A DNA stretch of 64,000 nt from Octopus sinensis. Taxonomy: Eukaryota. This document shows positions 19,251 to 56,145 of the stretch, piece by piece. The stretch lies in the NCBI RefSeq assembly GCF_006345805.1, contig NC_043021.1, positions 26,350,001-26,414,000 on the forward strand, in the 5' to 3' direction. Each line of letters opens with the position of its first letter. Within the stretch, counting starts at the first letter, position 1. The notes beneath the pieces were generated by a model. It had not been told where the DNA came from and made no database searches. It saw only the letters and a program-made list of their open reading frames with translations. Made by a program: the position numbers and the translations under genes.

Positions 19251-19286
19251 CTTTCTGTAGAAGAGCGTAGGCTCGAAACGTAAAAG
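19251..19286 (+). ncRNA. Minimal type-I hammerhead-like motif (variant core)
   Basis: CTTT-CTGTAGA-A-GAGC GTAG GCTC-GAAA-C-GTA-AAAG; palindromic ACGT at stem III. Confidence 0.55.
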
Positions 19287-19400
19287 GCTTTTTCTATTCC
19301 TGAGCATTATACTAATACATCTGTTTGTTTTGTACACCACCTGTCTTCGTCTTTTGCTTTTTTCGTGAACTCTCCCTATATATATATGTGTGTGTGTGTG

Positions 19401-19444
<44 letters not shown>

Positions 19445-19818
19445 AGTAAGTAAAAGAATAAAAGAATATATATATATGAGGCAAATCGTTGCTAAACCCT
19501 TAATTACTTAGTATTACTTAAACTTTCCTCGAACGAGGCTTTTACATGCCGAAATCTACTTGGTGAAATTAATGATTATTCCAAATTAATTAGTTTTACC
19601 CTATTTTATTACTGATATATATATATATATATATATATATTCTTTTATTCTTTTACTTGCTTCAGTCATTTGACTGTGGCCATGCTGGAGCATTGCCTTT
19701 AGTCGAACAAATTGACCCCAGGACTTATTCTTTGTAAGCCTAGTACTTATCCTTTCAGTCTCTTTTGCTGAACTGCTAAGTTACAGGGATGTAAACACAG
19801 ACACACAAATACACACAC

Positions 19819-19856
<38 letters not shown>

Positions 19857-19879
19857 CGATACATACGATACAGCTAAGG

Positions 19880-20300
19880 GTCAGACCCGATTCTGATTGG
19901 TCAACAAGTTGATGACGTCTAGCTCTGCTAGAATGGACAGGATACAAACAGGGACAATCATTAGTCAGAATATTGATGACGTCCTTTTCTGCTTGACTAG
20001 TCACCTAACAAGTACAGACAGGGGGCAGATCTAATGTAGTAGCTATAAGTCGTGATTGGGCAGAATCTGGATGACGTCCCGTTCTGCTTGACTAACGAAG
20101 CGACTGGTCAAAACAGAAACAAATAAGAGGCAGTTATAATGCAGCGATTGGTCAAAATGATGATGACGTCCCGTTCTGCTTGACTAAAGCCACCTAACGA
20201 AACGATTGGTCAAAACGTTGATGACGTCACGCTACGCTGGATTGACCACCTAACAGGCATTATAAAACCGAGCACTTCACAAAACTCACTAGAACCACCC
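19880..20300 (+). promoter_or_regulatory. Array of inverted CCAAT + CRE-like sites followed by a TATA box (LTR U3-like)
   Basis: Four ATTGG-N12-TGACGTC units plus one degenerate unit; TATAAAA at 20261-20267. Confidence 0.6.
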
Positions 20301-20706
20301 AGCGAACATCCACCATGGGTCATCACAATTGCTTAAGGTAAAAATGAATGATCCTCTGCTCTTTCGGAAACATCAATCTTCTGTATTGACCGCTTTCCAC
20401 CACTTTGATCTGTTTTTTGTATTGAATACGTATCGCCACCGTGGGCCACTGCATCGAACACTTTGAACATATACTTCAAACTATATATCAACTATACATG
20501 AACTATATATCAACTATACATGAACTCTAAGATGTCTGACTCCGTTGTGTATTATAAATGAATTTCTTGTGTTTGACGGCATGAGCTGTCTTTTTTTATA
20601 TATAACTTTTTTTGATAAGGTTCATTTCAGGAACTGAAACATGTTATAATGTATATATAAACATTAAAAATTGTATATACAGCAGCATTTTCGAACTTCA
20701 TTTTTT

Positions 20707-20757
<51 letters not shown>

Positions 20758-21892
20758 TTATATATATATACATGTATGTATGTATGTATGTATGCATATA
20801 CATATTTATACTTATATGTGTGTGTGTGTGTGTATATATCACATATATGTATATCTATATCATCATCATCATAGACATCATCATCATCATTTAACATCCA
20901 TGTTCCCTGCTGCCATAGAAAGAGAAAAATGATCAGCAGGAACTGCAAGGCATGGATGATGACAATCAGATACCCAGGTGTCCCCCACAAGGCATTCGGT
21001 GAGTAGAAGTGGGTGGGTAGTTAATTTGCAAGGTTGTATGGGAAGGAGGATGAATACAGCAAATAAACATCTAATGAATACGTAACCATGGTGATTGAAC
21101 AACTGATATTATCAAAACAGATGCGAGATTCATTTGCATATGACATCAGATTTACATGGCCAGGTGAGTTATGTCTTTTTTTATGTGAATTTTTGAATGC
21201 TTTGAATACACCTGTGACACAAAGAGTCTGGATTAGGATTATGTTAAGGATACAAGGATTTGTGGAATTTTCAACCGCATACAACAAGCCATCTGGCCCC
21301 TCCTCGTCCATTCTCTGTACCCTCTTTTAAGCTCACCTCCTTGCTCCTTGATGGCTTATCATGACACCTCATCACTATGGTCTTATTCTCTTCCCAGCTA
21401 CACCCACCCTTATAGCTATGTATCTTCTTTAGAGAAAGACATCTGTGCCCACCCCTCCAACACACCCCAATCTCTCAACCTGTGGCACAAAGCCACTTCC
21501 CCACCCCTCAAATACTCCCCCATCTCCACTTAGACAAAGACATTCTTTCTTTTTCTTGTTCTTTTCCTGTGCTACAAGTTACTCAGTGATCCCATTGATG
21601 CAAGTGCGATAAAAAAATGTACCTGGTACACTCTGCAAAGTGGTCGGCACCAGGAAGGCTCTCCAGTTGCAGACACCAAGCAGAAGCTATTGTTAGCACT
21701 AAATATAGCCCTGTGGCTTACCAGATCTTGTCAACCTATCCAACCCATGCTAGATTCGATAATGGATGCCAAATGAATCATCATCATCATTTAACGCCTG
21801 CTTTCCATGCTGGCATGTGTTGGACAGTTTGACTGAGGGCTGGTGAGCTAGAAGGCTGCACCAGGCTCCAATCCAATCTGGCAATGGAGCCT

Positions 21893-22535
21893 GAGGGGAA
21901 GTCGATAATTACCTGCACTTTCACCATAACATATCATTATTATTGTCTCCCTGCCTTCTACGCATGCAAGCTTATTACTGTTGGTATTACTGTGGTCACT
22001 TGATCGCAGTTTGAGCCTGATCACACCATTTTTCTTTCTGGTTTTACAGTGTAAGCCTGGCTGCTCCACTAGCAATGGGCACCAAAGAAGAACAAAGAGC
22101 AGTAATCCAAGAGATGGCAATGGGGAACCGGTTCTCCATTAACATCTCCAAGAGAACCGGTTCCCCATTAACATCTCTTAAGCTTGCTGAATCTTCTCGT
22201 CAGTGGTGGAGGTTGACAGACGTCCTTCTCCCTCTTCATGCATCATGCTTCTCTGGCCACTTGTAAACTTCTCGATCCACTCATACACACTTCTACGTGG
22301 TAGGGCACTGTGCTAAAGGCCTCCGATGAATTTCAGCACCTGACACACCATTTGACCAAAGAAATCTGACCACTGCGCTTTGTTCTTCTTTGGTGCACAT
22401 TGCTAGTGGAGCGACCGTGCTTACACTGCAAAAGCACAATTGTACCGACTTTAAACAGGCATCCGCAGAAAGCAGTGTGACAATAATAAAGTTAGGCTAT
22501 GGCAAAAGTGCAGATAATTTTTGACTTCCCCTCGT
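21893..22535. mobile_element. Fold-back mariner derivative made of two inverted 5' ends
   Basis: TIR-like GAGGGGAAGTC at both ends. Plus arm encodes MGTKEEQRAVI; minus arm encodes MCTKEEQSAVVRFLWSNGVSGAEIHRR..VYEWIEKF..EGEGRLSTSTTDEKIQQA (mariner HTH N-terminus). Confidence 0.8.
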
Positions 22536-22550
22536 GTATGTATGTATGTA

Positions 22551-22619
<69 letters not shown>

Positions 22620-22830
22620 GTATGTGTGTGTTTGTATCTGTGTTTGTTCTCCTCACGACCATTTGACAACTGGTGTAGGTGTGTTTATGTCCCTGTAACT
22701 TAGTGGTTCAGCAAAAGAGACCAATAAAATAAATACAAGGCTTGAAAAATAAGTACTCAGATCGATTCATTGACTAAAAATTCAAGGTGGTGTCCCAGCA
22801 TGGCCACAGTCTAATGACTGAAAAAAGATA

Positions 22831-22900
<70 letters not shown>

Positions 22901-23309
22901 ACATGTATATATATCTATATATATATATATATATATACTTATATTAAGGCATTAATTACTATACATAAATGCCTCACGCTAGGAGGGACTTTTAAAGTCA
23001 AAACTACCATAATAAATAAACACATTGTACCGAATTCGAGGAAATGCAACTCTTGAAATGAGCATTTTAAAAACAGAATTCAGCTGCATATCATATGATT
23101 TCATAATTAGTGCACAAAATGCACTTTTTAATCTTCAGTGCAAGCATAACTCAAGATACACAAAAATGAACAAAAAATCAACATACCAGATGAACACCAA
23201 ATGTATCCAGCATATATGCATACACACACACACACACACAGAAGTAGTAATAATGAAAGGTACTGAAACAAGAATTAAAATAAATGAATAAATAAATAAA
23301 TCTGCCTGT

Positions 23310-23315: not shown

Positions 23316-24767
23316 CGCTTTATCTGCATGGTAATCCGAAACAAGGATAAAAGGAATGGTTGTTAATGTAGCATATCCGAAACCTGTGACTGCAGCCACA
23401 GCATTTACAATGATTATATTGTGACAGAAGACCATTATGAACATAGCGAGGGAGAAACTGGCCATTCCGCAAAGATAGGTGAGTCGGCAGCCATACCGTT
23501 CCACCAAACGCTCAATGAAAGGGGAATATGCAGCAGATGTCATGCAATGTAACAGGAGACCCCAGCTTCCCATTCGCACGCCTTCGTCGAAATTGTTCCG
23601 TGACAAGGAATTCTCAGGGGCATTAGGATTGCCATCGTAAACGGCTTGGCCAACATAATCGGTGTAGAAAAGTGTGAATCCCATCACGGCAGTCCAACTA
23701 CAGAAGTTGGCAGCAGCTAGCTGCCGAAGAACGAAGGGTATATCAAGTAAAGCTTGGATATTTTCAGGTAATCGATGATATATGCCTGTCCAGAGAGATT
23801 TAATAAGGCGTTTGCTATATTTACAAATATGACAAATGATTGGCAATTTAACAGTCAATAATGTTAAGCTGAGTATACAAGAAATTACTTTTGAGAGGAA
23901 CACAGGTGATGAGTTGATCAATCTGGTCTTTGATGCTGTCCTTTGACTTTTTAGTGATGTTGCAGAAGTTGTGTTATCGTCTGATATAGACTCGTTACTG
24001 CTTGTTTCATAACCAGACTCATGAATATTGTTCGTTACTAAAGGCACCCCTTCTACGTCTCCAGAATATAACAGTGATTGTTCTTGGCTATTCTGTAACT
24101 GCGGAGTCTCCTCTGCAATCATCAGAGTCGCAGCAGATGATAAAAGGTATAAAACTAAAAGAATTGCAAAAATGGATTGTTCCTGTCCCCCGAAATAGTG
24201 TCCTAGAGATGAGTTGCTCCAGTCTAGAGCTGTTATCAAATAACCAACACAGCCACCAAAGCTGACCATGAAAGAATAAATTGTAAAAATTCTCTCTTTC
24301 TGATCTGTGCCTTCTGAAGCATCTGAAAGAAGAGCCTCACATGGTGTTAGCAATGACTGTGTCGAGAAATCCAGTAAGATGACACCAGCAGTTAAAACAA
24401 AAATCCCTAAGTGGGAGGTGGTAATTACTTCACTCTGTTCTGTGAGATAAAGGTTATCACCAGACAGAATGAACACAAGAGATAATAAAATTAGCAGAGA
24501 TATCCAAAATATGAAAGGACGCCTTCTTCCATATTTACTTTTACACTGATCACTGGCTCGACCCATGAGGGGCACAATGATCAAACAGAGAAGTGGACCC
24601 ATTCCCAGAATGATGCTCATATTCTCTTCAGAGTAACCAACTTTGAGAAGCAGTGGAGAGATGCACGTGAAACCAGCACATGCACAGATTTCAACTCCAA
24701 AGACCACAGAGTTGAGCAGAACCATCTGAGAGAAGGACAAGGTTTTCCTGCTTTGCTGCGGCAACAT
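23316..24767 (-). CDS. SLC45A3: SLC45A3 (prostein)-like MFS transporter, main coding exon (484 codons, about TM1-10); C-terminal exon not located in window
   Basis: ORF has the SLC45/sucrose-transporter signature DQCKSKYGRRRPFI, plus LLDFSTQSLLTPCEALLSD, FTLFYTDYVGQAVYDGNP and FDEGVRMGSWGLL. The N-terminus LLNSVVFGVEICACAGFTCISPLLLKVG resembles vertebrate SLC45A3. Similarity stops at ...YHADKA, exactly at a GCG|GTGAGT donor (phase 0). Confidence 0.9.
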
Positions 24768-24812
24768 CTTCGCTTGTCTTGCAATTTCTCCAGAAGAAGA
24801 ATCAGTTGAAGC

Positions 24813-26897: not shown

Positions 26898-26932
26898 CCA
26901 CACAACCACTTCTCCACCTATATATATAAATA

Positions 26933-27295
26933 AAAATTATAATAAAAGGTTAATTGCAACAAGTTGCTCAAAACCACATACCGAAAATATTAGAAATAGC
27001 AGCCAAATTGATCACTATTTCTCCTACTAATAAAAGTCTCCACAAACAAACAGAATTTGTAACCCATATATGGTAAAAAGAAAGAAAATAACGAAATCTC
27101 ATCCTATGGATTAATTATAGATGAATATGGCTGCTATTTCTAATATTTTCGGTATGTGGTTTTGAGCAACTTGTTGCAATTAACCCTTTATTATAATTTA
27201 TATAATTCTTAGCAAATATGGTCTTTTCCATACCGATAAATCTACTAGGTGAAATTTATTAATTTTATTAAATTAATTACATTTCACCCTTTTTT
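26933..27295. mobile_element. Inverted pair of retrozyme-family module fragments
   Basis: 26935-27005 is the reverse complement of 27128-27198. Both are diverged relatives of 27535-27690. Confidence 0.7.
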
Positions 27296-27316
27296 TGTAT
27301 ATATATATATATATAT

Positions 27317-28191
27317 TGAAGAGAAAAGAAGTTTTGGTAAGGTAGAATTATTTAATATTTAATTCTTATGCTTTCCTAAAAACTTGATTTCGAAACGTGA
27401 GTCCGTAGATAACTTAAAATTGTATGATAGATTGCCGTCAATTCATTCTCTCTTACCTGTTTGTGTCTGCCTTCCAATTGCTGTTTTTACTGAGATCTCC
27501 CTTTTTAGTAGAAGAAATAGCTATAACTCTTTGACTGCTATTTCTAAATTCGGTATGTGGTAAGGCAATTCGTTGCTAAACCCTTTATTGCTTAGTATTA
27601 CTTAAATTTTCCTCGAATGAGGCTTTTACATGCCGAAGACTACTTGGTGTAATTGATAATTATTCCAAATTAATTAATTTCACCCTTCATTATTACGGAT
27701 AACCATATTTTATCTCAGTAGATGACCACAGCATCATGTTTTGGCTACACGCGGGTGGGAAGGGGCTGGTGACACAATCTTTTCATTCACACTTTGAATT
27801 TGGTGATACTAGTTGCGGATTCTAGCTCGCTCTGATGCTGAGTTGAGTTGGTGCCTTCTAGTATCTCAAAATTCAATATATAATCATTTATGATTATAGT
27901 ATTCTACGCTGAAGAGAAAAGAAGTTTTGGTAAGGTAGAATTATTTAATATTTAATTCTTATGCTTTCCTAAAAACTTGATTTTGAAACGTGCGTCTGTA
28001 GATAACTTAAAATTGTATGATAGATTGCCGTCAATTCATTCTCTCTTACCTGTTTGTGTCTGCCTTCCAATTGCTGTTTTTACTGAGATCTCCCTTTTTA
28101 GTAGAAGAAATAGCTATAACTCTTTGACTGCTATTTCTAAATTCGGTATGTGGTAAGGCAATTCGTTGCTAAACCCTTTATTGCTTAGTAT
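27317..28191 (+). mobile_element. Non-coding retrozyme/Penelope-like element, partial tandem (about 1.5 x 593 nt), inserted in (TA)n
   Basis: 27317-27598 is repeated at 27910-28191 with only 3 differences seen. Each repeat starts with a hammerhead motif. No ORF. Confidence 0.8.
27903..28002 (+). ncRNA. Type-I hammerhead ribozyme with long stem II
   Basis: TCTACG-CTGAAGA-[stem II]-GAAA-C GTGC G-TC-TGTAGA. Stem I is TCTACG/TGTAGA (CGTAGA in copy 1). Predicted GUC cleavage after 27996. Confidence 0.75.
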
Positions 28192-28653
28192 ATATATATA
28201 TATATATATTTGATAGACTTGGTCATTCTCTCTTTTGTAGTTATGGTATTCTAGAAAATTGCACCTTTGCAAACTCTGGCACTGTGGGCAGCCAGCAAGA
28301 TGATTTTTTCCCTGTCTTGTTTTAGCATTCTAAAGTAAGACATAGACTAAGCATAAGATTCTTCTATAATTTCCATGTGTGTGTTGAGTTGCAATGAGAG
28401 TAAGATTATCGATGTCTGAGAGTTCCAGTTCACAAAATGGTACAGAGGTGGCAATCGATATGAAGGTCAGCAGAGGTTTGGATCAAAACTGATGAGTTTT
28501 TAGACGAATGCATCTAAGCAGTCCTCAGTTTGGCTCATCCCTGCATTGGTAAGAGACCAAAATAAAGGACCTCAAAGGCATGTCTCACTTTCTCTGATTG
28601 GACATCCTCAAGTGGTGGTGATGGGGGACATTTTTGTAGATAAAAGAACCAAT

Positions 28654-32667: not shown

Positions 32668-33047
32668 TAGGTGCAGGAGTGGCTGTGTGGTAAGTAGCTT
32701 GCTTACCAACCACATGGTTCCGGGTTCTGTCCCACTGCATGGCACCTTGGGCAAGTGTTTTCTACTATAGCCTTGGGCTGACCAAAGCCTTGTGAGTGGA
32801 TTTGGTAGACGGAAACTGAAAGAAGCCCATCGTATATATGCATATATATATATATATATATATATGTATGTTTGTGTGTCTGTTTTTGTCCCACCAACAT
32901 TGCTTGACAACCGATGCTGGTGTGTTTACATCCCCATAACTTAGCGGTTTGGCAAAAGAGTAAGTCGTGGAGGCGATTTGCTCGACTGAAGGCAGTACTC
33001 CAGCATGGCCATAGTCAAATGAATGAAACAAGTAAAAGAGTAAAGAG
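32668..33047 (+). mobile_element. tRNA-headed SINE family 1
   Basis: Head, internal (TA)n and 3' part all present. Confidence 0.85.
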
Positions 33048-33282
33048 TAAATATTAATTAAATATTAATTAGGAATTAGAAATATTGAATTTCTAAATGT
33101 CTCAGAGAGATTGAGCGGTGGTGGAGCGATAGAGTGGTTGTATACTGTCAACATAACGTGCCAGTGGCGTAAAGGGAATCACTCCACCGCTATTTAGCCT
33201 CAACGCTTCCTGTCGGCTTTGACACATTTCCTGTGTCCTTATATTTGCAAAGGGGAGGCAAGCACCCCCACCCAGCCAGGGC

Positions 33283-33337
33283 CTGCCCCTAGAGACATGC
33301 ATGTTTGTGAGTCTTGCTCGTCATCAGTCCAGGGTAG
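33283..33337 (-). ncRNA. Type-I hammerhead-like motif (GAAA altered)
   Basis: CCCTGGA-CTGATGA-CGAG CAAGA CTCA-CAAA-CATGCATG-TC-TCTAGGG; 10-nt palindrome ACATGCATGT. Confidence 0.55.
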
Positions 33338-34402
33338 CAAGTCCTGCTAGTTGAGATGTTTGCCGAGACTTCGCAAATCTATATATTTTCAGTGAAATCT
33401 ATTCACTGATTACCAATTAGGAATTGTATAAAAAGAAATTGTTGAAACATTTTGGGTATTGTGGAAGTAAAAAGAATTTATTGCTTGTAAACTTTAACAA
33501 CAAGATCTCATACAGACCCCGAAGGATCATATGGATCCCTAAGGGTCGTATGAACCCTTATTGAGAACCACAGTGTTAGACCGTTGTCATGGACCCTCCT
33601 CTGTTGTTGTCCTGAACAGACGAGGGTCCCACAGTTTCTTGCTGATTTGTCCCCAGTGATCAAATAAATGAACTCCCTCTCTGCACCCAAACTGGCATGA
33701 CATGCAGAGGTTCCCCAATGTGCCATACGTCACATGTCAAAATGATCATAGAGTGACATGAGATGAAATGCTTTGTTCAAGAACACAATGCACTGCCTGG
33801 TCCAGGAATTGAAACCATGATATCTTGATTGTGACTGTAGCACCCTAACCACTGGACCATGCATTAGATCATAATAACGTTATAAACCAGAGCGTGCCAC
33901 ACTATTACCCCTGCCCCTTTCCGTTTACTGACATTTTCTTTTTTCAGTGCTTCCCCCCACTCCCCACAACCACTTGTTGTGACTCAACAATATTAGAGAC
34001 ACAACCAAAAATTTGCTGCCAACAGGTTGATTCTCCTTAAAGGACTTGGCATCAGAGTTATTTCATCAATATACAATGATACGGATTGTCAGAACAACAT
34101 TTTGACTCCTGATGTTAGCAGACAATTCACAAACAGAATAAGAAATTGAAAATGATCTATGGCATCCCCCACCCCCACCCCCTTTGTCCCCAGTAACCAT
34201 ATAAAAATTTTCTGCTGCAGTCAATGAGTGGTACCAGCCATTTTGAGTAGCATCGTTACAGAATAATCTGACAAGAAATTGCCAATTCAAGAGATGAGAG
34301 CCAAATGGAGACCAAAGACAGGCAACTCGGTCAAAGGTTTTGGTGAGAGGTCAAAGGTGGCAATATTGCTTTTACCAAAATCCTCGAGAGTAAAACACCA
34401 CT

Positions 34403-34433
<31 letters not shown>

Positions 34434-35224
34434 GTGAATGTGATGAAAGTAACCAGAGCTTAATACTGTTGATAGTTGGAAGTCTTGCACCACCAGACAG
34501 CAGGTTGGCTCTGGCCGCAGGAGCTGAAACTAACACGACTGTTAGAAGGTAGGTCTAGAGAGGGTGCAGGCCACAACTACGTGCCCTTCCCCTCCATTGG
34601 TCAATTGAAGCTTAGACAGTGTCACGTGACAGTTAGCTGGTGCTGGCTGCTGGAGGCTAGCGGTCAGTATTTAAAGAGATTTGGCAGGATGGTCAGTCGC
34701 CCGCTGACACTGCATCGAAGAAACCAAAAAACAAAAGGCCAAAGGAAAAAGAGGAAAGAAAAAACACACTCAACCACAGAGGTAGGGGTGGTGCCACATC
34801 AAAAATGGTAGAAGAGTAGGGCCCAAACCTGGACATGGTTCCTCCTGGTGATGTCCTTAGCCACTGGAGCCTATAAAAGAGCTGTTGAGGTAGCGAACCA
34901 CAAAAACGTGGTTGGAATTCCATCTATTGTTGCATGGAAAAAGTATCAGGTGGTTATTGAGAAGGAAATAAGAAAAAAAGTAGTTGTTCATAACAATGTC
35001 TGTCACTGATGAGATGTTGGAGAGAGAGAAATACTTGGCAGACTTAGAAACCTCATGAGTAAGGGCAGTGGTCCACAAATGATTTGAACCTGCACTCTAC
35101 TCCCCACCATCATTAACATCACTTAATGTCCACCTTTCCATACTTGCATTGGTCAGATGGAACGAAATGAGATGAATTTTCTGTTGTGATGCCCTTCCTG
35201 TCACTGACCCTCACTTGTTTCCAA

Positions 35225-35309
35225 CCAAGGTACTGTATATGCCAAGGTACTGTATATGCCAAGGTACTGTATATGCCAAGGTACTGTATATGCCAAGGTA
35301 CTGCATATG
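35225..35309. repeat. 17-bp minisatellite (GCCAAGGTACTGTATAT) about x5
   Basis: Direct reading. Confidence 0.9.
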
Positions 35310-36542
35310 ACACATTTCTTTTATTCTTGAATTGCCATGTGTTTAACGTGATCGCATTACAAACGGGATACTGAGTGTGTGAATGTATGATTAGACATAT
35401 TCAATTTGGGGTTTGTCCCAACTTGTAGGTGTCTCTCTTCTGTGGGTGCATCTTATACACCAGTGAACATGATTCTACTTCTGTATGGCCAGGCATGTTT
35501 CACAGATTAGAAAGAAATGACATTGTGTCCTGTCCCAGTTTCACATCATAAAACACTAAAAGCATAGTTTTAGATAAAATGGTTTCTTGAGCAGTCGTAA
35601 CCTATTTTACTATTAAATTAAACTTACATTTCTGCAGGCTTTGGAATCAATGCTTCATAACTCTACTTTTTTTTTTATACCTCTGCCCCCCACCCCCACC
35701 CTCACCCCCACCCCACCCCCCACACACAACTGCCTGCAAACAAAATATATAAAACTGGTCAGAAAAGCAAACAAACACACAAGAAGAAAAGATGATCAAT
35801 GAATATTTTTCAATATTTGAAGTAATTTTTTGTTTAAATATATGAATCTGAAAATGCATCATTGTTCAGCTGTGTTCATTCTTCTAACAACAGTCAAGCA
35901 AATGGACTTGACACAGGAGAAGCAGTGAAGACATAAAGGAATTATATATTACAACAAGTATATAAGATCTTTAATGCTGAATGCTCAAGTAATCAGTTTA
36001 TCAAGAACTGTAAAGTTACTGTCAACAATGTAAAACTGGAATGATGTGATGAGTGTTACTGTCAAATGAGCAGCGTTGGATGTGGAGAAATAATGCCTTG
36101 TTTGGAAACTGGTCACAGAAAATCTACCTCAATGAAATAAAGAAGCAATCTACCTCAATGAAATAAAGAAGCAGTCAAGTACTGGAGATAGGGGTCACTC
36201 TAATCAACTCGTCCCTTTGCCACAAATTCGAAATACTTGTTACCATGACAAACAGCTGCACATAGTCTTGGAGGTTGTTCGAGTTGCATTTCTGGCAATG
36301 ATCCTTTCTAAAATATGCACAAGGCCTGGAATTTTAAGAGAGAGGCCTAGTTGACTTGATCAACCTCATTATTTGATTGGTACTTATTTCATTGATGCTG
36401 AAAGGATGAAAGGTAAAGTTGACCTTGATGGAATTTGAACTCAGAACATGATCACAGACGTAAGGCCACTTTTGCCAGCTTGCCACTTTTATTCCTGGTT
36501 ATTTCCTTTTCAGCATTCCTTTAACTGTGTCAAGCCCTGACA

Positions 36543-36905
36543 CTTTTACTTGTTTCAGCCAGTAGACTGAGGCCATGCTGGATCACTGCCTTAGAGGGTT
36601 TTAGCAAAACAAATCAACCAGAGGACTTACTTTAAGTTAGGTACTTATTCTGTCAGTCTCTTTTGCTGAACCACAAAGTTAAGTGAAGCAGCGGAGGGAG
36701 CAAATACAAACAAAACATGCCCACCCCAACACACATATATCTGATAGGCTTCTACACAGTTTCCACCTAACAAATTACATAGAAGGCATTGGTTGGCCAG
36801 GAGCCAAAGCAGAAGGCACTTGTCCAAAGTGTTATGAAGTGGGATTGAACCCCAAACCAAAACCATGTCATTGTGAAGTAAACTTCTGGATCACACAGCC
36901 ATGCA
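36543..36905 (-). mobile_element. tRNA-headed SINE family 1 (old)
   Basis: Diverged consensus blocks. Confidence 0.6.
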
Positions 36906-37056
36906 AAAGAAAATCCTCATCATCATCATTGTTTAACATCTGCTTTCCATGCTGGCATGGGTTGGACAGTTTGACTGAGGACTGGTGAGCCAGATGGCTG
37001 CACCAGGCTCCAGTCTGATCTGGCAGAGTTAGGGTTAGAGTTATATATATATATAT

Positions 37057-37090
<34 letters not shown>

Positions 37091-37177
37091 ATATAAAGTT
37101 AATCCAAACATGGAAACACAACAACGTGAGGACGTGGAACAAGTATAGTGTTATTGGATGCTCAGGAAAGAAGGAGG

Positions 37178-37212
37178 ATTTAACATTTTGAGTGGAGCTC
37201 TTCGTCAGAAAC
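37178..37212 (-). ncRNA. Decayed minimal hammerhead motif
   Basis: GTTT-CTGACGA-A-GAG CTCCA CTC-AAAA-T-GTT-AAAT; same architecture as 19251. Confidence 0.45.
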
Positions 37213-37310
37213 ATAGGAAAAGGAAAGATCCAAGGAAGGGAAGACGGAGGGAAAAAAATCGCTAATGATACACATGTGGTCACATATTGAATGACCGGAA
37301 GGGTCATTAG

Positions 37311-37344
<34 letters not shown>

Positions 37345-37348
<4 letters not shown>

Positions 37349-38950
37349 TGGATTACTTAATGGTCAGAAGATTTTGCTTGCTGTTTTATTTTTTTGAACT
37401 GTTGACTGTTTTCTTCCCTTTTATCTTTTATTTGTGACTTTCTTTTTATTGAACAGTTTTCCTTTTTTTCTTCCTTTTGTTGAGATTTTCTTTTGATTTC
37501 TTTACTTTTCTTTTTTTTTTCTTTTTGAATTTTATCCTGAACTGTGTTTGAACTTTGTGTTAAAAAAAAAACATGGCAAAGAACAAGAACAATGTTTTAG
37601 AGTGGGAAATTGTTCCACCCAAACAGTGGTTGAAAGACCGTGAAGAGGACGGTGGTGTTGAGGACTTACTCCAAGTCGCTCGACACCATTGCCCTATTTC
37701 AAATTAATGTTATCGAAAGGGAGTTGGCAGAGTATCTGCCAACTATTAAATTCATATCCAAGGGAGTCAAATATGCAATGGTCTGGTTGCTATTTGACAC
37801 CCCTGAGGAGGCGTGCAAATTTGCAAGCCACCACTTGGAGGGCTAAGAGATTTTGTTCCTTCCCACGTATTGTGGGAGGAAGTTGACGAGGGCTTGGGTC
37901 TGTGGTTTGCCACCCAGAATAGAACCTGAGTGGATAGAGGACACTATCCGCCGGGGTCTGGGAGGCAGCAGAGCCAAGCTCTTCAATGTAAAAATGTGGC
38001 TGATTGGGTGGGGATAAAAGTGGTTTTGACCCTGTGGACCCAATCAGCCAAAAATCTGGTATTTCCCAATTTTTTGAAAATGGCCAGGTGAAAATGGCCC
38101 GGTAATTCTTGAGGGTGGCCCCCCCCCCCTTGTGTCATCAGTGCCTGGAGCCTGGCCATATAAAGAAAAACAGGAACAAAGTAAGGTCCTGCAGCAGTTG
38201 GTTGAGATTTCTGTAAAAGAGGGAATGAAGGTGGCCAAGGATTCCTCAAAGAAGGGTCGCAAGAGGAAGAAGGTGAGCAACAATAGGTGCTCACTGAAGG
38301 ATCCTAGGAATGAGGGAGGGGAGGCAAATCTACCAGTCCCGGAGGAGACACACCCTCCCTCAGATGAGAATAAAAAAAGAAGAAGAGAAGCGGGACATTG
38401 CCAGCAGTCGGTAACATAGTACCGGAATGTCCTAGAACCTCATGAGTGGGGGTTGTGCCACCGGCGGGGGAAGAGACACTGTCGGTGGGAATTGTGCTGC
38501 CAATGGTAGAAGCGACTGCCTCATCCCCAGAGGAAGACAAATTATTGGTCTTCGACAGAGGCGGAGAAGTGGAGAAGATGTTGGAAAAGCACCATAAGGG
38601 AGTACCTTTAGCCTGCACACAGGATCCCGAATGGCATCCGCAGATAGCTGTGGAGGTCATAATGTTGCCCGTGTTGCGTAGGCTGGAGGGACTCAACGAG
38701 GAATATTGCTTGTGGCTGGGGAATGCTGAAACGGCACCCACTTTGTGCTTGAATGAGGCATGGGTGATGGCAGAGGACGGGGTCACAAGTGATGTTGGGG
38801 AGGAATATGGAAAAGAGGTTGAAAAGCCTCAGTGTTATTGAAAATTCCTAGTTTGGGAAAAAAAAGATAAGAAGCTTAGTGCCTCATTTTGTTATTGAAT
38901 ATTGTGAACAGTGTAAGAGGTTTGTTGCCTCATGAAGAATATAAAAGATC
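37345..38950 (+). mobile_element. Decayed L1/Tx1-like ORF1 (gag-like) element lacking ORF2
   Basis: T-rich 5' region, ATG at 37573, RRM-like KRTVVLRTY..FDTPEEACKF..VCGLPPRIEPEWI, and zinc knuckle CHQCLEPGHIKKN at about 38131-38170. Stops and frameshifts present. Confidence 0.6.
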
Positions 38951-39103
38951 AATATTCTCGGGAAACAACGATCGGCGGGCGTCGCTTACCCCCCCCCCAT
39001 TAATCATCATTTTCATTTTTTCATTTCACATAACATTATGTCAGTGTCCAGCCCACAGCTTCCTATCTCTATGTAAAGCCTTTTATGGCCAATGTAATGA
39101 AAT

Positions 39104-39660
39104 AAAGAAGCTTGCTTCCCAACCACATGGTTCTGGGTTCAGTCGCACAGCATGGCACCTTGGGCAAATGTCTTCTACTATAACCTTGTGAGTGTATTTG
39201 GTAGATGGAAACTGGAAGAAGCCTGTTGTATACACACATACACATATATATATCATCATCATCATTGTTCGACCGTGGTCGAGACAATGGAATTTACCAT
39301 GCTACGCCAGACTTCACGGTCCATCATGGCATTATGGAGGTCCTGTTGCTGGATACCTGTATCCCTGGAGATTACATCAGGGTAGGAGAGTGTGCGCCCT
39401 CTGGTATTGCGAGTAGATACATATATCTGTGTCTATGTGTCTGTGTGTCTGTGTTTGTCTCTCCACCACCACTACTACTTGACAGCCGTGCTGGTGTGTT
39501 TACACCCCCATAACTTAGCAGTTTGGCAAAAGAGACTGATAGAATAAGTACCAGGCTTTTAAAAAATAAGTACTGGGGTGATATATTCAATTAAAAATTC
39601 TTCAGATCGGTGTTGCAGGATGGCTGCAGTCCAATGACTGAAACAAGTAAAAGATACAAG
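39104..39660 (+). mobile_element. SINE family 1 with internal insertion
   Basis: Head and 3' blocks separated by an unrelated insert at about 39250-39420. Confidence 0.6.
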
Positions 39661-40341
39661 ATTAAAGGCAGGTGTGTGTGTGTGTGTATGTTTGTCACCT
39701 GCAGCACCACTTGATAACTGGTGTCAGTGTGTTTACAAACCTGTAACTTAGCGGTTTGGCTAAAGAGAATAACAGAGCAAGTACCAGGCTTGAAATAAAA
39801 AAATTCAAAACTCACGTACCTCGGTCAGTTCATTTGACTAAAATTCTTGAAAAGCAGTGCCCCAGCATGGCCATAGCCTAATGACTGCAACAAGTAAGAA
39901 ATAAAAACTTTTTTTTAAATCTCCCCTTTGTTTTGTTTTTTGTTGTTTTGACATTTGATGACATCACTCAGTCATTGGCAACAACTGTTTAACTCCCTTC
40001 AATGACAGACTTTGGATCAATAACATAACGAGTTAGATTAAATCAAAGTGTAAACGACAATGAGAAGACTGTCACAGCAACACATGGAAGCACACATCTG
40101 GCAAAAGTCAAAAGAAACTTTGATTCAATCACAACACATTCTCCAATAAGTGAGAGGAAATTAGCTGAAAACAGGTTTCTTCTTGTAGTAAAGATTGTTT
40201 GCCAACATAACATGGCAGTCCTGGTTTAGGACGAATGTTGCTATAATTTAGCCCCAGGAGACAGCTGGCTATACGACACGATCTGTGTCCTTATATTTTC
40301 AAACAAGGGAATCTAGCACCCCTACTCAGCCCAAAACAATA

Positions 40342-40386
40342 TCTGTGTATCGTAATTTCCAGGTTATTTCCTTTCATCAGCACAGA
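40342..40386 (-). ncRNA. Type-I hammerhead ribozyme, intact catalytic core
   Basis: TCTGTG-CTGATGA-A AGG AAATAA CCT G-GAAA-T TACG A-TA-CACAGA; 6-bp stem I; AUA triplet. Confidence 0.7.
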
Positions 40387-40449
40387 ATAATTCCCGTGTT
40401 CGAAAATATAAGGACACATCGTATTGTATACCCAGCTGGAGATGATGTC

Positions 40450-40487
<38 letters not shown>

Positions 40488-40489
<2 letters not shown>

Positions 40490-41492
40490 CTTTGATAGAT
40501 TTCGGCCATTATAGGCCCAGGTAATGTATAGCTCAATAGCACCTTCTGGTGAAGTCTTTTAGTCACATATGAGGGCACCATGGCCCACTCTAGCAAAGAG
40601 GTATTATTTATGGAGACATATCCGGGTGTAGGAGGTTGGTCCAGCATATTTTGAAGAAATTTCTCAGGTGAACATTTGAATTTTATGGAATCAGTTTCCG
40701 TTTTGACGTATTTTGGTATTAAAGAGAGCTGGACTAGTTGAGGTAAAGTAATTGTGATGTAATGTTGCTATGTGTACAGAGTTCGATTTTTGAAGTGGAC
40801 GGATAGCACGAGGGTCAAGTCTTGGATGGATTTTATGCCAACATCATTTGTGCAATATTGATGGAATATTTTCCACATCATACAAATGATGTAACGCTCC
40901 TGGCGGCATTGGAGAGAGTAGAGATTGAGTTTTTTTAGTCGACCCAAATAAGCAATGCAATAATCATGCAGTCTGTCTTTCTTGTTATTGACCTCTGGAA
41001 TGCTTCTACTTTTACAATGAGTTGCTTCGCATGAGCGGACCACAGTGGGCAACAGTACTCAAGGTGGAGTCAGGCAAAAGTAGAGTAGAGAAGGATGATG
41101 GTGTAGGCATCTCTAGACCATAAAGTTCTCAGAATCCAAGAGCACATCTTGCTATTTACATGGGAACTCCAGCTTAGATAGTTATCAACAATTACTCCAA
41201 GATCTCTGGTGTTGTTGGACGACACTAGGGAGTTGCCTGAGGGAAGTGTATATGGTAATATCAGAGTTTCCTCTTTCCTGAAGTGGATCAAATCAAACTT
41301 ATTTTTGTTTAAAAGCATGTTGTTTTTTTTTCCTCGTACTGGACAATAGCAAATGGATCTGACTGGAGGCATGTTTGGTCTCCCATGCCATTTATGGCTT
41401 TCGGGAGTTTGAAATCATCTGCAAAGATTTTCAATGTAGAATGTTTGATGGCATCTACTATGTCGTTGATGTAAATAATGAATACACCCACC
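40488..41492 (-). mobile_element. Decayed CR1/L2-like LINE RT (5'-truncated)
   Basis: FIIYINDI, KIFADDFKL, RDLGVIVDNYLSWSSHV, LKKLNLYSLQCRQERY. Confidence 0.8.
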
Positions 41493-41502
41493 TACACATA
41501 TA

Positions 41503-41711
41503 CAGTAACCCCTTCACTATCGCAGGTATTACGTTCCAAAACACCCCACAACAGATGAAAATCTGCAAAGTAGAAACAGTACTGCACTGTATATTCTTTT
41601 AAAATTATTTTTATGATTTGTATATATTTATTTTATTATAAATGCAAAACAACACCCCATGGAGGAATCAACATAAGCTTAAATAATAAACTGTGAAATG
41701 GTGAGGGATTA

Positions 41712-41715
<4 letters not shown>
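41503..41715. mobile_element. Tc1/pogo-type MITE
   Basis: TA-CAGTAACCCCTTCACTAT ... ATGGTGAGGGATTACTG inverted ends. Confidence 0.65.
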
Positions 41716-41753
<38 letters not shown>

Positions 41754-41791
41754 TGATCAAAATAAAATAAAAACATGATGCGAAGGATTCA

Positions 41792-41869
41792 GCGGTAAAT
41801 ATGTTTCGGGCCTTTATTAGACAGATTTATAACAATGCATAATGTATGTCTGTGGCCTTCTTCAGCCGC
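41792..41869 (-). ncRNA. Type-I hammerhead motif
   Basis: GCGG-CTGAAGA-A GGCC...GGCC C-GAAA-CATATT-TA-CCGC; one change away from the palindrome ACATATGT. Confidence 0.6.
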
Positions 41870-42027
41870 GCACAACAGCTTCCACAATGACATGTGTTAC
41901 ATCAAAAATTCTTGGTTGGGGATGCAAATCCTCTCATTCACGTACGACATAATGCGGCAGCAGCATAGAGTTGAAGCGTCCATCTCTTTATAATATATAT
42001 ATATTATATATATATATATATATATAA

Positions 42028-43945: not shown

Positions 43946-44032
43946 TACATCTGCGTATATAATATCCGCCATGTTAGACCACTGAACTCAACCCGTCTCT
44001 TTCCTTCTCTCTCTGTTTATTTCCTCTTATTC

Positions 44033-44068
44033 CTTTCTGCAGAAGAGCATACGCTCAAAACATAAAAT
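44033..44068 (+). ncRNA. Decayed minimal hammerhead motif (family of 19251)
   Basis: CTTT-CTGCAGA-A-GAGC ATAC GCTC-AAAA-C-ATA-AAAT. Confidence 0.4.
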
Positions 44069-44871
44069 ACTTCTCCATTTTTCAAACCAATACAATTGTT
44101 TTCGTCTTAGTTTTATATATATATGATGATATACACACACACACACACCAGTGTCACAGCTGGATACACCAATAGAGTAGTAGTAGTAGTGTGTGGGCTG
44201 AAGCAATAGATTAACCAGCTGTGCCCTTCAAGACCCACTAAGGTGGTTCAGTCTGTCAATATTCAGCTGTAAATTGATCCGGCAGAAGAGGCACACAGAG
44301 CTCAGTGCTGTGGCCAGAGGAACACTTGAGGAATGAATAGCATTTGCTTTATTCAACTTTCTTCAAGGCCTTGATACATGACACTGTGAACCAGTACACA
44401 ACACTGACTACAATAAGTGTGTGTGTATATATATATACACATTCATTTATATTATGTGTGTACGTGTGTGTATACATATATACACACACATATATATAAT
44501 ACATATTTATATTGTTTATATATATATAATATATATATATATATACATACACTTATATACTACATATATATATATATACTTACATACATACATTTATATA
44601 CCACACACACACATATATATACATACACATACATTTATATACTACACACACAAATATATATATATATATACATACACATACATTTATATACTACACATAT
44701 ATATACATATATGTATATATACATATATGTATATATACATACATTTATATTGTTTATATATCATCATTGTTTAACGTCCGTTTTCCATGCTAGCATGGGT
44801 TAGACAGTTCAACAGGAGTCTGGGAATCCAGAAGGCTGCACCAGGCTCAGTCTGATCTGGCAGTGTTTCTA

Positions 44872-45646: not shown

Positions 45647-45714
45647 AGCTCTGATGAAGCCATAAGGTGTTACTATGAGTCCACCACATCTTATAGCAAA
45701 AACAGCTGTAAGCT
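45647..45714 (+). ncRNA. Type-I hammerhead motif (GAAA>AAAA)
   Basis: AGCT-CTGATGA-A GCCATAAGGTGT...ACATCTTATAGC A-AAAA-CAGCTG-TA-AGCT; palindrome ACAGCTGT. Confidence 0.55.
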
Positions 45715-46448
45715 ACTGAAGTTCTTAAGACAATTGTTTCTTGCTTTGTCATCTTATTTTCTTAAATATACAAACATAGACATATATGCACATTATGATG
45801 AACAGCCATATAGCGCTTCTGGGCATCGTACAGTGACTGAAAAGCATAGGAAAGGTAATCTCTAAGTTCATAGTGTCGTCTGCCAAGTGTTTGTGACCAA
45901 TGAGGAGATAATTCCTCTGAAATGCTAGCATCTCAGTCTAGGTAGATGGCGCTGCAAGCTGATCTAGGTGTATACACAACATTTGTCAAAATGCAGTCAG
46001 TGGCTTGTTCCCCAGTTCAAATGTGCATCAAGCATATCGAGACATTGCTCCATATATGTACATACATATATGCAAGTATATATATGTGCGGCTATACACA
46101 CACAAGCATATATCAATGTGTTATAAGCTACACAATGGTGCCCGTTGGCCACAGAATTTCTATCTCTGTATCACAAAGAGGTTATTTACACAAGTTGTCG
46201 ATGCAAAAGAATGACATTGGATCACTGAGTGATAATGCAGTTGTGTAAGGCAGCCTGTTGTCGTAACACTGTTATATACCATTACATTGTTATACAACAT
46301 CAGCTTTAACAATAGCTACAAGCATTAGGGAAAAAATTGCTATTGTAATGTGAGAAACACAAGATCTACACTGACCTCAAAACAATCTTGCTTGACCTTT
46401 GAATTGTTGGGCAAATTTAGCTAAAAATCATTTGGGATATCTTTCTTT

Positions 46449-50109: not shown

Positions 50110-50495
50110 CTTACTCTTTTACTTGTTTCAGTCATTTGACTGCGGCCATGCTGGAGCACCACCTTTAGTCGAGCAAATCGACCCCGGGACTTATTCTTTT
50201 GTAAGCCCAGTACTTATTCTATCGGTCTCTTTTGCCGAACCGCTAAGTTATGGGGATGTAAACACACCAGCATCGGCTGTCAAGCAATGCTAGGGGGACA
50301 AACACAGACACACAAACACATACACATATATACGACAGGCTTCTTTCAGTTTCCATCTACCAAATCCACTCACAAGGCATTGGTCGGCCCGAGGCTATAG
50401 CAGAAGACACTTGCCCAATATGCCACGCAGTGGGACTGAACCCGGAACCATGTGGTTGGTGAGCAAGCTACTTACCACACAGCCACTCCTATAGG
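50110..50495 (-). mobile_element. tRNA-headed SINE family 1 (young)
   Basis: Full length; near-identical to 63612-64000. Confidence 0.85.
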
Positions 50496-52560: not shown

Positions 52561-52943
52561 CGTGGCTGTGCAGTAAGTAGCTTGCTTACCAACCACATGG
52601 TTCCGGGTGCAGTCCCACTGCATGGCACCTTGGGCAAGTGTCTTCTACTATAGCCTCAGGCCGACCAAAGCCTTGTGAGTGGATTTGGTAGATGGAAACT
52701 GAAAGAAGTCCTGTGTGTGTGTATGTATGTATATGTTTGTGTGTCTGTGTTTGTCTCCCCACCATTGGTTAACAACTGATGTTGGTGTATTTACATCCCC
52801 ATAACTTAGCGGTTTGGCAAAAGAGACCAATAGAATAAGCACCAGGCTTACAAAGAACAAGTCCTGGGGTCGATTTGTTCAACTAAAGCCAGTGCTCCAG
52901 CATGGTCACAGTCAAATGACTGAAACAAATAAAAGGAAAGAGT
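52561..52943 (+). mobile_element. tRNA-headed SINE family 1
   Basis: Consensus blocks. Confidence 0.8.
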
Positions 52944-53696
52944 AATATATATAATATGATAGCAAAACACTCTGCCAATGGATAAAGGCAATAAAATAGA
53001 AATAAAGTATTAAACTTTGTTCTCTCTCTCTGGTCTGGTACCACATGATCCAGGACCTGGTACAGGTCTGTGGCCCAGTCGGTTCCACAGAACTGTCTTT
53101 ATTCATTGTTAATCCTTTTTATTAATAAACATCACAAGTCTCAACACAACACTCCTATATTTGGATACTAAAACAATACATACACCAAACTCCAAACACT
53201 GTTAAATAATTATTAATAAAAGTGTAAAGACCCCCTTCGGTCATGAAGGACCATGAGATTGTGCCTAGAAAGTTACCCTCTGAGGCACAAGTCCAGGCAA
53301 GGTTGTTTATGGAAGACCAGCAGTCGCCCATGCGTGCCAGCCTCCCCCCTTTCCACACCACTGATGTCATCCAAGGGAAAGGCAATTCATTTCTACAGCT
53401 GAGTGAACTGGAGAAACGTGAAATAAAATGTCTTGCTCAAGAACACAACACGCAGCCTGGTCCAGGAATTGAACACACTACCTCATGATTGTGAACCTGA
53501 CGCTCTAACCACTGAGCCATGTGCCTTTAGTAATATTGTTCTGTTATTTATATGTGTGGGGCTGGGCCATGGGATTAAGAAGTTTGCTTCCCAACCCTAT
53601 GGCTTTGGGTTCAGTTCTAGTGCACAGCAAGTTTGGGCACATTATTTGGTAGACAGAAACTGAAAGAAGCCCACCATATGCATGTATATACATATA

Positions 53697-53761
<65 letters not shown>

Positions 53762-53967
53762 GTGTGCATATGTGTGTCTGTATACATACATATATTATAC
53801 ATACACACACATATATACATCCAACAAAACCTCTTTAATACCGCCTACCATAAAAAAAAAAGTTTAACCCTTACCAGAGTCAGAATCTCAATGAATGACA
53901 ACCACACAGTTCCAATATGTGGTGCAGCACAAAGGAAATGACCTTCATAAACTGCATACACATATAC

Positions 53968-54200
53968 CTCTTTTACTGGTTTCAGTCATCTGACTGCAGC
54001 CATGCTGGAGCACCACCTTTAGTCGAGCAAATCGACCCCAGTACTTATTCTTTGGAAGCCTAGTACCTATTCTATCAATCTCTTTTGCTGAACCACTAAG
54101 TTACGGGGGCATAAACACGCCATCATCGGATGTCAAGTGATGGGGGGTGGGGAGCAAACACAGACACACAAACATACACACACACAGATACATATATATG

Positions 54201-54239
<39 letters not shown>

Positions 54240-54398
54240 GACAAGCTTCTTTCAGTTTCCATCTACCAAATCCACTCACAAGGCTTTTCGGTTCGAGGCT
54301 ATAGTAGAAGACACTTGCCCAAGGCGCCATGCAGTGGGAATGAACCCGGAACCATGTGGTTGGTAAGCAAGCTACTTACTACTCAGCCACTCCTGCAC
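53968..54398 (-). mobile_element. tRNA-headed SINE family 1
   Basis: Consensus blocks. Confidence 0.8.
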
Positions 54399-55659
54399 TT
54401 ATTTTTCAATGTTATTATTATTATTATTGTTCAGGTCACTGCTTGGAATTGAACTTGGAATCTTGTGGGGTTAGTAGTCTGCATTCTTCACCACTATGCC
54501 ATATGCCCGTGGACATATGGCATAGAGATTAAGAGCCATATATATGTATGCTACATAAAAAGAAATGGTGCTGGTGCCACATAAAAAGCACCAAGTACAC
54601 TCTGTGGAGTGGCTGGCGTTAGGAAGGGCATCCAGCTGTAGAAACCATGCCAAAACAGACAATGAAACTCTTGTCAAACTGTCCAACCCTTGCCAGCATG
54701 GTAAACAGACATTAAATAATGATGATGATGGTGGTGTGTGTGTGTGTGTGTGTGTTACCATTTGTACTTCTCCAGATGTCTTGAGCAGTAAGCATCGATG
54801 TTGTTATGCTTCCTACCAACAAATCATCCGCTGGCTTTACTGCTTTGAAGATTTGTGAAAGAAGAGACCTCTTACTTGAGAAACAGCTGAGGGTTAGTGA
54901 CAGGAAAGGCATCCAGATATAAAACAAAGATATTCCTCAAACTCATGCAAGCATGGGGCAAACAGACATAAAAATAAACAAATGAATTCCAGTAAAAAGG
55001 GACCAGGGAGTTGACAGGGTCGGTAAAGGGACAAACAGGATGGTATGCAGTTGGTGGGTTTCCTGGCCTCTCTGGTATATATATTCCTCCCCTGGATGGG
55101 ACACCAGTCCATCGCAGGATTACTTCTTTTTGCCAGCTGAGTGGACTGGAGCAACGTGAAATGAAGTGTCTTGCTCAAGAACACAATGCATTGCTTGGTC
55201 CAGGAATAAGTCAATCACCCGAACCACTAAGCCTTGCACTTCCACGAAATGGCAGCATTTGGTTATAATCCTTGGTAATCTATACTAGAATCCGACTGCA
55301 GCTGGCTTTGCTTTCATTCTTCCCTGGGCAGAGCGTGAAATAAATACCAGTGAACTACTGGGGTTGATATGATGAAGCGTTCCCCTCTAAAAATTTGCAG
55401 TCTTACGCTCTTGTAAGGTTCAACGTTATTCCATGAAATATTTGAAAAGCTGATGATGTTGTAAGAGGAAGGTTTATTGTTACCCGTGATTTGAGACCAA
55501 CATACTGGGAAATATATATAACATACACACACACATGCATACACATATATATATACATGTATGCATGCATCTATATATATATGGAAAGAGATAGATAGAT
55601 ATGTGAATATATACACAAGTATGTATGTATATGTGTTTGTGTATGTGTGTGTATATATG

Positions 55660-55695
<36 letters not shown>

Positions 55696-55719
55696 TGTAT
55701 GTATGTATATATATATAAA

Positions 55720-56145
55720 AATAATTAAAAGGGCGGGCAACAGGCTGCTTCGCCGCATACCGAAGGAATTAGAAATGGCAGTCAAAGACTGTTTTTTCCA
55801 TTTTCTACAAGTGGAGGTTCCATATACGACAAAACCTGCGATTCACATATGCAAAATCGGAGTAGCAAATAAACGAAAACAATCTCTTACCATCAATGGT
55901 GAACATGTTTCTAGATCACAGGCTAGAAATTGCCTGATTTCCTTCGTCAACACCATATTCAATAGATTTAGCAAATGCCACAAGCCTTCACCTCTGACCA
56001 AGCGACATCAGAAAGTGGGGGGAGGTGTGCAGATGTTAAAACTAAGTAATGACTGGGACCGTAAATTTTCCCTCCAAAATTCTGCTATGCGCGCCGCCTG
56101 GGTGATCGCAATGGAATAAGAAATCCACATGGTAATACAATAAAA
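55720..56145 (-). mobile_element. Diverged relative of the 27.3-kb retrozyme-like element
   Basis: Carries a hammerhead and the TTTGACTGCCATTTCTA..TTCGGTATGCGG module; flanked by (TA)n. Confidence 0.6.
55896..55956 (-). ncRNA. Type-I hammerhead motif (C3>U)
   Basis: ATGGTG-TTGACGA-[..CAGGC AATTTCTA GCCTG..]-GAAA-CATG-TT-CACCAT; 6-bp stem I; palindrome ACATGT. Confidence 0.6.

Follow-up and report, generated by a model that had tools for sequence, protein, structure and literature searches.

The window analyzed here, a stretch of 64,000 nucleotides (nt) of the Octopus sinensis genome (NCBI RefSeq assembly GCF_006345805.1, contig NC_043021.1, positions 26,350,001 to 26,414,000 of the forward strand), contains a series of hammerhead ribozyme motifs that are real and occur well above chance. 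We consider it very probable that these motifs are type I hammerhead folds residing in several multi-copy octopus repeat families, likely short and mostly decayed end pieces from the pseudo-long terminal repeats (pLTRs) of Penelope-like elements. The order of their parts fits that of the published pLTR hammerhead, namely a U-rich leader, CUGANGA, an optional extra base, helix II, GAAA, a palindrome and NUH. For groups B and C and the single motifs described below, it is this architecture and the layout of the insertions that suggest membership among Penelope-like elements.

Motifs are named throughout by the position of C3 of the core. Both strands of the window were scanned with a descriptor that allows at most one core change and includes a helix I of at least 4 bp, a helix II and a self-complementary helix III. 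It should be noted that this was a second descriptor, written after the sites had been seen and permitting longer helices II and III and the one core change; a first, tighter descriptor passed, in its strict form, 27909 alone. The scan yielded four motifs with a perfect core (27909(+), 23138(-), 40380(-) and 41865(-)) and six with one core change (19255(+), 33327(-), 37208(-), 45651(+), 55950(-) and the weak 12928(+)), and no strong matches within 1-19 kb or 56-64 kb. The controls were five sets of 100 shuffles each (2- to 6-mer, global and local) and the reversed window. While the window holds four perfect-core motifs, the 500 shuffles gave a mean of 0.01-0.04 and a maximum of 1; for up to one core change, ten motifs stand against a mean of 0.47-0.92 and a maximum of 5. 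The reversed window contained no perfect-core motif and one with at most one core change. An excess of this size cannot be explained by tuning of the descriptor. About one of the ten relaxed matches is to be expected by chance, most likely 12928(+), which we do not count as real. Another candidate, 45897(+) at 45894-45935, was likewise set aside, as it has two core changes and a 3-bp helix I; it carries a perfect 10-nt palindrome after GAAA and lies 246 nt behind the 45651 motif. No hammerhead family was found among the Rfam matches listed for the window (150 of 198) or in three local Rfam scans.

A preliminary description of this DNA had spoken of about ten motifs and named 11 sites. A hammerhead-like arrangement is present at all 11 sites, within a few bases of the positions given, and eight of them pass the descriptor; of the remainder, 44033 has decayed but is homologous to 19255, 27317 duplicates 27909 with its 5' part cut off, and 35000 is doubtful, while 23138(-) had been overlooked. 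Both core boxes are intact at four of the 11 sites (27909(+), 40380(-), 41865(-) and 35006(+)), and single core changes are found in 19255 (A6>U), 33327 (C at G12), 37208 and 45651 (A at G12) and 55950 (C3>U). Helix I, helix II and a self-complementary helix III are all present except in 35006, which has no helix II, and in 27316, where the 5' strand of helix I is gone.

Eight of the motifs sort into three homologous groups, which we term A, B and C, whereas 23138, 41865 and 45651 are single within the window. The families were thus rightly described as several, but calling them unrelated was too strong. Group A comprises 19255, 37208 and 44037, together with a tail fragment at 62673-62717, and its members have in common a pyrimidine-rich leader, the context of the core and part of the tail. 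The 19255 motif (19250-19287, +) combines its changed A6 with an extra A after A9, a 4-bp helix II, the palindrome ACGU and a 5-bp helix I; its element stops at a (TA)n run 122 nt downstream and lies antisense within an intron of the host gene SLC45A3. In the 37208 motif (37178-37212, -), which lies in a short element between TA runs, G12>A and the decay of the palindrome both fall on CpG sites. The 44037 motif (44031-44070, +) is homologous to 19255 (79.7% over 59 nt) but has decayed, with two core changes, A6>C and G12>A, and a broken palindrome.

Group B consists of 27316, 27909 and 55950 and of the fragments 19479-19617 and 26941-27033, linked by a common downstream block (27909 versus 55950, 72.5% over 91 nt). 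The best copy is 27909 (27903-28002, +), in which both boxes are intact and the site is GUC; it has a helix II region of 69 nt, an 8-nt self-complementary helix III and a 6-bp helix I with the strands TCTACG/TGTAGA. It is the second unit of a 593-nt partial tandem that stops at a (TA)n run 280 nt downstream. The upstream unit, 27316 (27316-27409, +), is cut at C3 by (TA)n, so that the helix I 5' strand is missing while G10.1-C11.1 and the helix I 3' strand are intact; the two units lie 593 nt apart and are 99% identical, with 3 differences in 278 nt. Folded by itself, 27909 has no significant predicted fold energy (z = -1.6). The third motif, 55950 (55896-55956, -), joins its C3>U change to a 6-bp helix I and a 6-nt palindrome, with (TA)n 233 nt downstream. 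Of the fragments, 19479-19617(+) is a 3' end without a hammerhead, lying between two TA runs and 88% identical over 139 nt to the 27316 copy, and 26930-27296 holds an inverted pair of group B-related 3'-end fragments, each running towards a TA run, whose arms (26930-27020 and 27113-27203) are 92% complementary.

Group C is formed by 33327 and 40380, which match in register over a 49-nt stretch behind the motif (82%) and less closely beyond it. The former (33287-33334, -) has C at G12, a 10-nt palindrome and a 7-bp helix I and sits in a multi-copy element at about 33110-33390; the latter (40342-40386, -) has both boxes intact, a 6-bp helix I and an imperfect 8-nt palindrome, and has beside it 51 nt that repeat its downstream part in inverted orientation (86%) and run out to (TA)n. 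An exact 14-nt TATA-like word, placed roughly 50 nt past the cleavage site, recurs in this group at 33233-33246, 40285-40298 and 40404-40417; it could belong to an internal promoter. In groups B and C, the sequences of helix I and of the palindrome differ between homologues while the pairing is kept, and such covariation within a group is better evidence than the comparison across families made in the preliminary description. The pair TCTACG/CGTAGA quoted there mixed the strands of two copies.

Among the single motifs, 23138 (23084-23143, -) has both boxes intact, a 10-nt palindrome and a 5-bp helix I, but a U.U at the base of helix II; (TA)n follows 201 nt downstream, and the motif lies on the sense strand of an SLC45A3 intron, about 175 nt past the splice donor. 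The 41865 motif (41792-41869, -) also has both boxes intact, with a helix II region of 51 nt and one mismatch in helix III, in an element of about 240 nt that lies between TA runs and shows very high summed contig depth. The 45651 motif (45647-45714, +) has A at G12, a 41-nt helix II region, a perfect 8-nt palindrome and a 4-bp helix I. The doubtful 35006 (34998-35043, +) keeps its two boxes and pairs over 8 bp in helix I, yet has neither helix II nor U16; a match of this grade also arises in 3-9% of shuffles, single-copy-depth contigs span it, and it may be either an old relic or a product of chance.

The repeat status of the region 33100-41950 was assessed from contigs of four of 24 listed sequencing runs, the summed depth of which indicates whether a sequence is repeated but not its copy number. 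In the run X1, the summed depth reaches 591,080 at 41888 and 10,138 at 33287, as compared with 45-72 for unique flanking contigs. Homologous copies in the window and the high depth at 33287 and 41888 are the marks of interspersed multi-copy families; 35006 shows no such mark. The element spans, which were set by hand, total 3.7 kb, or 5.7% of the window.

The helices and cores show some further features. Helix II regions measure 29-69 nt in five motifs, and at the helix II foot an unpaired base stands on both sides in 23138, 33327, 40380, 45651 and 55950, which may represent either decay or a variant. Group A carries the extra base after A9 together with the G10.1-C11.1 pair that are known from the published consensus, as does 41865 if a bulge is permitted, while 27316 and 27909 show G-C or G.U at the helix II foot without the extra base. 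In 19255 and 44037, A6 is replaced (by U and C, respectively) and an A is found at position 7, and this family may have multiplied with its core already non-canonical. Several changes fall on CpG sites, namely G12>A in 37208 and 44037, the conversion of ACGU to AUGU or ACAU, and two of the three differences between the group B copies, and we infer that the core changes at these sites reflect neutral decay. Self-duplexes of the palindromes are predicted at -8.8 to -13.3 kcal/mol for 27909, 23138 (-9.6 kcal/mol), 45651 and 33327, versus -1.7 for ACGU. The best candidates for cleavage would be 27909 and 23138.

The layout of the insertions was also considered. The cluster at 26930-28190 brings together an inverted pair of end fragments with a TA run and a partial tandem next to it, and an inverted end layout recurs at 40262-40438, where it involves the downstream part of 40380. 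As insertions of Penelope-like elements with partial tandem and inverted ends are drawn by Craig et al. 2021 (PMC8557442), who also note that some clades favour (TA)n, we count this arrangement as support. A (TA)n run lies within 300 nt downstream of seven of the 11 motifs, as compared with 28% of background positions (p ~0.016); the preliminary description had placed most elements beside (TA)n, but in a TA-rich genome this is not specific.

A further link to Penelope-like elements comes from loci outside the octopus. With a core pattern shaped on group A, at least 120 metagenome loci were retrieved. In this unfiltered set, helix I, which the pattern does not include, has at least 3 bp in 79 of 122 matches, versus 0-7 of 122 when slid. 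Three long frames among 18 tested at these loci gave matches to reverse transcriptase (RT) or GIY-YIG. One such frame provided 42 of 150 homologues for a Penelope protein profile of 434 positions, and all four of its full-length homologues tested contain RT and GIY-YIG. This profile matches 17 of the 120 loci, in 16 on the strand of the hammerhead, and in about ten the C-terminal end of the protein lies about 100 nt upstream of the hammerhead. The preliminary description had suggested looking for autonomous Penelope elements with RT and GIY-YIG; such coding sequence accompanies the same architecture in outside loci, but was not found in scans of the window itself. Six outside loci (L012, L024, L053, L055, L068 and L118) have two hammerheads close together on opposite strands, in an inverted Penelope-insertion layout. 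A covariance model, whose alignment used 47 of 76 distinct outside segments chosen by eye, omitting many with a broken helix I so that its pair counts lean high, ranks group A first in the window (19255, E 6e-6; 44037, E 0.005; 37208, E 0.016). The octopus-specific group A pattern had no matches in metagenomes or in viral contigs, and its four matches in prokaryote genomes are about the number expected by chance.

Several observations weigh against assigning the motifs to Penelope-like elements and need to be considered. No remnant of Penelope RT or GIY-YIG was found in the window with Pfam, in 216 of the open frames (including a minority of those left of 19 kb), with tblastn using 133 outside frames, or by motif search, and the Penelope profile scored at best 3.7 bits on the window versus 2.7 in the reversed control. 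Among the outside loci, 103 of 120 have no match to the profile, and none of 117 matches to the group A pattern has (TA)n downstream. The outside-locus and covariance results cover group A only and are partly circular, as the pattern itself came from that group. Within the window, other repeats likewise stop at TA runs, and no (TA)n run closes the downstream end of group C or of 45651. Not one motif is fully canonical, and the family majority letters at the damaged core positions were not seen among the variant rows listed (40 of 606). It should be noted that little coding sequence is to be expected in elements that keep no more than 35-200 nt ahead of the motif, and 5'-truncated copies of coding elements would look like non-autonomous elements. 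The proposal of Penelope-type hammerheads in short repeat families is supported by the architecture, the tandem and inverted cluster and the outside group A loci.

The layout would be understandable from what is known of these elements. The hammerhead is part of the pLTR; the protein of the element makes its cut in AT-rich DNA and begins reverse transcription at an internal position of the RNA (PMC11167929). Where pLTR copies stand in tandem, helix III allows two hammerheads to pair and cleave, though the cleavage is weak in vitro (PMC4209133; PMC6765202). For an anole element, cleavage required the protein, while insertion in vitro did not require cleavage (PMC11167929). In the octopus, the RT/GIY-YIG protein of an autonomous element would nick AT-rich or (TA)n DNA, and the RNA would be reverse-transcribed from near its own 3' end, with end pieces in short, tandem or inverted form left by early stops and template jumps. 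If transcribed in tandem, two hammerheads would join through helix III, which is self-complementary, and cleave behind NUH. In the group B tandem, the core of 27909 pairs perfectly with the helix I 3' strand of the upstream copy, and half a dimer could thus form.

The same motifs could instead belong to independent non-LTR retrozymes or hammerhead-bearing short interspersed nuclear elements (SINEs), which would be transcribed in tandem, cleave themselves, circularise and reinsert, with no Penelope coding parent at present. The lack of a coding remnant in the window speaks for such elements, as do the 593-nt tandem of 27316 and 27909, which is 99% identical and inside the range of 51-972 bp given by Li et al. 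2026 (bioRxiv 10.64898/2026.07.22.740005), and the approximately 5000 such hammerheads of mussels (PMC7229834). The window, however, has just this one two-unit tandem, the first hammerhead of which is incomplete, while the preprint asks for two complete units; the remaining copies are single, and a short helix I with a palindromic helix III suits the pLTR type. As the preprint itself derives retrozymes from Penelope pLTRs, the two explanations differ mainly in degree, and we regard an independent retrozyme origin as unlikely, though worth bearing in mind. Still less probable, in our view, is that only some of the motifs are real, with 35006, 45651, 23138 and group C being products of chance or hairpins of unrelated repeats such as miniature inverted-repeat transposable elements (MITEs). 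The tuning of the descriptor on the sites, the absence of hammerheads from the Rfam results, the weak z of 27909 folded alone, the shuffles that match 35006 and the MITE-like position of 40380 between inverted repeats would all agree with this. Yet at most one perfect-core match arose in any of the 500 shuffles, as compared with four in the window, homologous pairs hold the core in register while the stems change, and the inverted repeat of 40380 copies sequence common to 33327, which has one arm.

It is also conceivable that the host has kept some copies as regulatory ribozymes that cut pre-mRNA, for example 23138 in the SLC45A3 intron. With both boxes, a perfect 10-nt palindrome (-9.6 kcal/mol) and a sense position about 175 nt after the splice donor, this motif would fit such a role, but the base of its helix II is the U.U mismatch, most copies are decayed in a neutral-looking manner, several at CpG, and pLTR hammerheads cleave weakly in vitro (PMC4209133). 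We find such host use the hardest to credit of these alternatives. A bolder proposition on the scale of the phenomenon would place the octopus hammerhead load among the densest known, at about 60 perfect-core motifs per Mb if the window is typical, or of the order of 10^5 per genome, with lineage-specific variants having a very long helix II and strong palindromes of 8-10 nt that pair between separate transcripts, and with sense intronic copies such as 23138 cutting host pre-mRNA. As the density is extrapolated from one window chosen for richness, the data should not be over-read in these terms, and we hold the proposition as a whole to be doubtful. For the motifs themselves, Penelope-like pLTR end pieces are the reading that we prefer.

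The kind of motif and its mechanism are already known. Minimal hammerheads (min-HHR) were described in the pLTRs of metazoan Penelope-like elements by Cervera and De la Pena 2014 (PMC4209133), where a genome may hold thousands of them, divided among several families and for the most part truncated and single. The octopus motifs resemble those in type I topology, the short helix I, the palindromic helix III and the U-rich leader, as well as in the extra base after A9 (group A), the many divergent families per genome and the inverted pairs. The min-HHR alignment of that study includes Lottia and Crassostrea, and palindromes of 8-10 nt and first helix II pairs other than G-C occur in it; in its supplement file 2, as far as compared, no octopus entry was found. 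The differences lie in helix II, which in five octopus motifs exceeds (at 29-69 nt) those in the part of the alignment compared and in five is mismatched at its foot, and in the two group A copies without A6. As to Neptune-clade and Naiad elements with their preference for (TA)n (PMC8557442), the partial tandem and inverted ends and the microsatellite bias are alike, and in the outside group A loci the hammerhead likewise follows a GIY-YIG frame that has a CxxC linker; Naiads, however, are described there as lacking canonical hammerheads, with mere remnants in cephalopods. Non-LTR retrozymes (Cervera and de la Pena 2020, PMC7229834; bioRxiv 10.64898/2026.07.22.740005), proposed in the preprint to derive from Penelope pLTRs, likewise carry a type I hammerhead in repeats that are short and do not code for protein, and the 593-nt tandem recalls them, but the window has no array of two complete hammerheads, the first unit being cut at C3.

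Large numbers of hammerheads have been reported elsewhere, with 126,247 in axolotl, as against the figure for a mussel given above (PMC7229834). The giant squid genome has 235 matches to the Rfam 'hammerhead 1' family (PMC6962438), so that hammerheads are on record for a cephalopod genome; the account given there, in the parts consulted, does not link them to Penelope-like elements. Unlike that set, the octopus motifs were not reached by Rfam models in the listed matches and local scans. For Octopus vulgaris, 190 Penelope-like families make up 6.83% of the genome and unknown repeats 15.12% (PMC13282606), and the annotation, in the parts consulted, never mentions a ribozyme. As this curated annotation already lists so many Penelope-like families, the expectation that such elements would be labelled 'unknown' is weakened. 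No account of hammerheads in octopus turned up in the literature searched; a study of small Penelope hammerheads by Luense et al. 2017 may include this animal.

The surroundings of the elements are those of animal DNA with a GC content of about 40% and many microsatellites. The host gene, which is separate from the elements, is represented by the large first coding exon of SLC45A3 at 23316-24767(-), encoding residues 1-485 of 582 and identical (100%, 485 residues) to an Octopus sinensis protein cluster of that name. As the final 97 residues were not found within the window, the sequence left of 23.3 kb is taken to be intron. An acceptor-like site lies about 155 nt 5' of the ATG, and motifs further right may therefore occupy an intron of the 5' untranslated region. 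Pfam pieces of RT, RNase H-like and integrase domains in separate frames mark a broken Ty3/gypsy-like pol remnant at 58750-60400(+). Repeat fragments at 40490-41480(-) and 28190-28520(-), which have no Pfam match, presumably represent the 3' ends of long interspersed nuclear elements (LINEs), which they resemble. Both stop at TA runs and directly adjoin hammerhead elements, so that adjacency to TA runs is not specific to the hammerhead families. Very abundant families that we take to be SINE-like have many copies throughout the window, for example at 32670-33050, 39090-39900 and 50110-50490, and summed contig depth at 39020-39900 is in the millions. A long near-perfect inverted repeat with a short spacer lies at 7381-7530.

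Many families within one genome were already described in 2014 (PMC4209133). What may be new here is the long helix II of five motifs, the mismatch at the helix II foot of five, the density, and the absence of A6 from two copies of group A. The results extend Penelope-type hammerheads to the octopus, where the hammerhead, used as a structural tag, may help to sort part of the approximately 15% of unknown repeats of O. vulgaris. The diversity of stems within one genome provides a ready set for studying the effects of a long helix II and of palindrome strength on dimer cleavage, and thus bears on the role that the pLTR hammerhead plays for its element.

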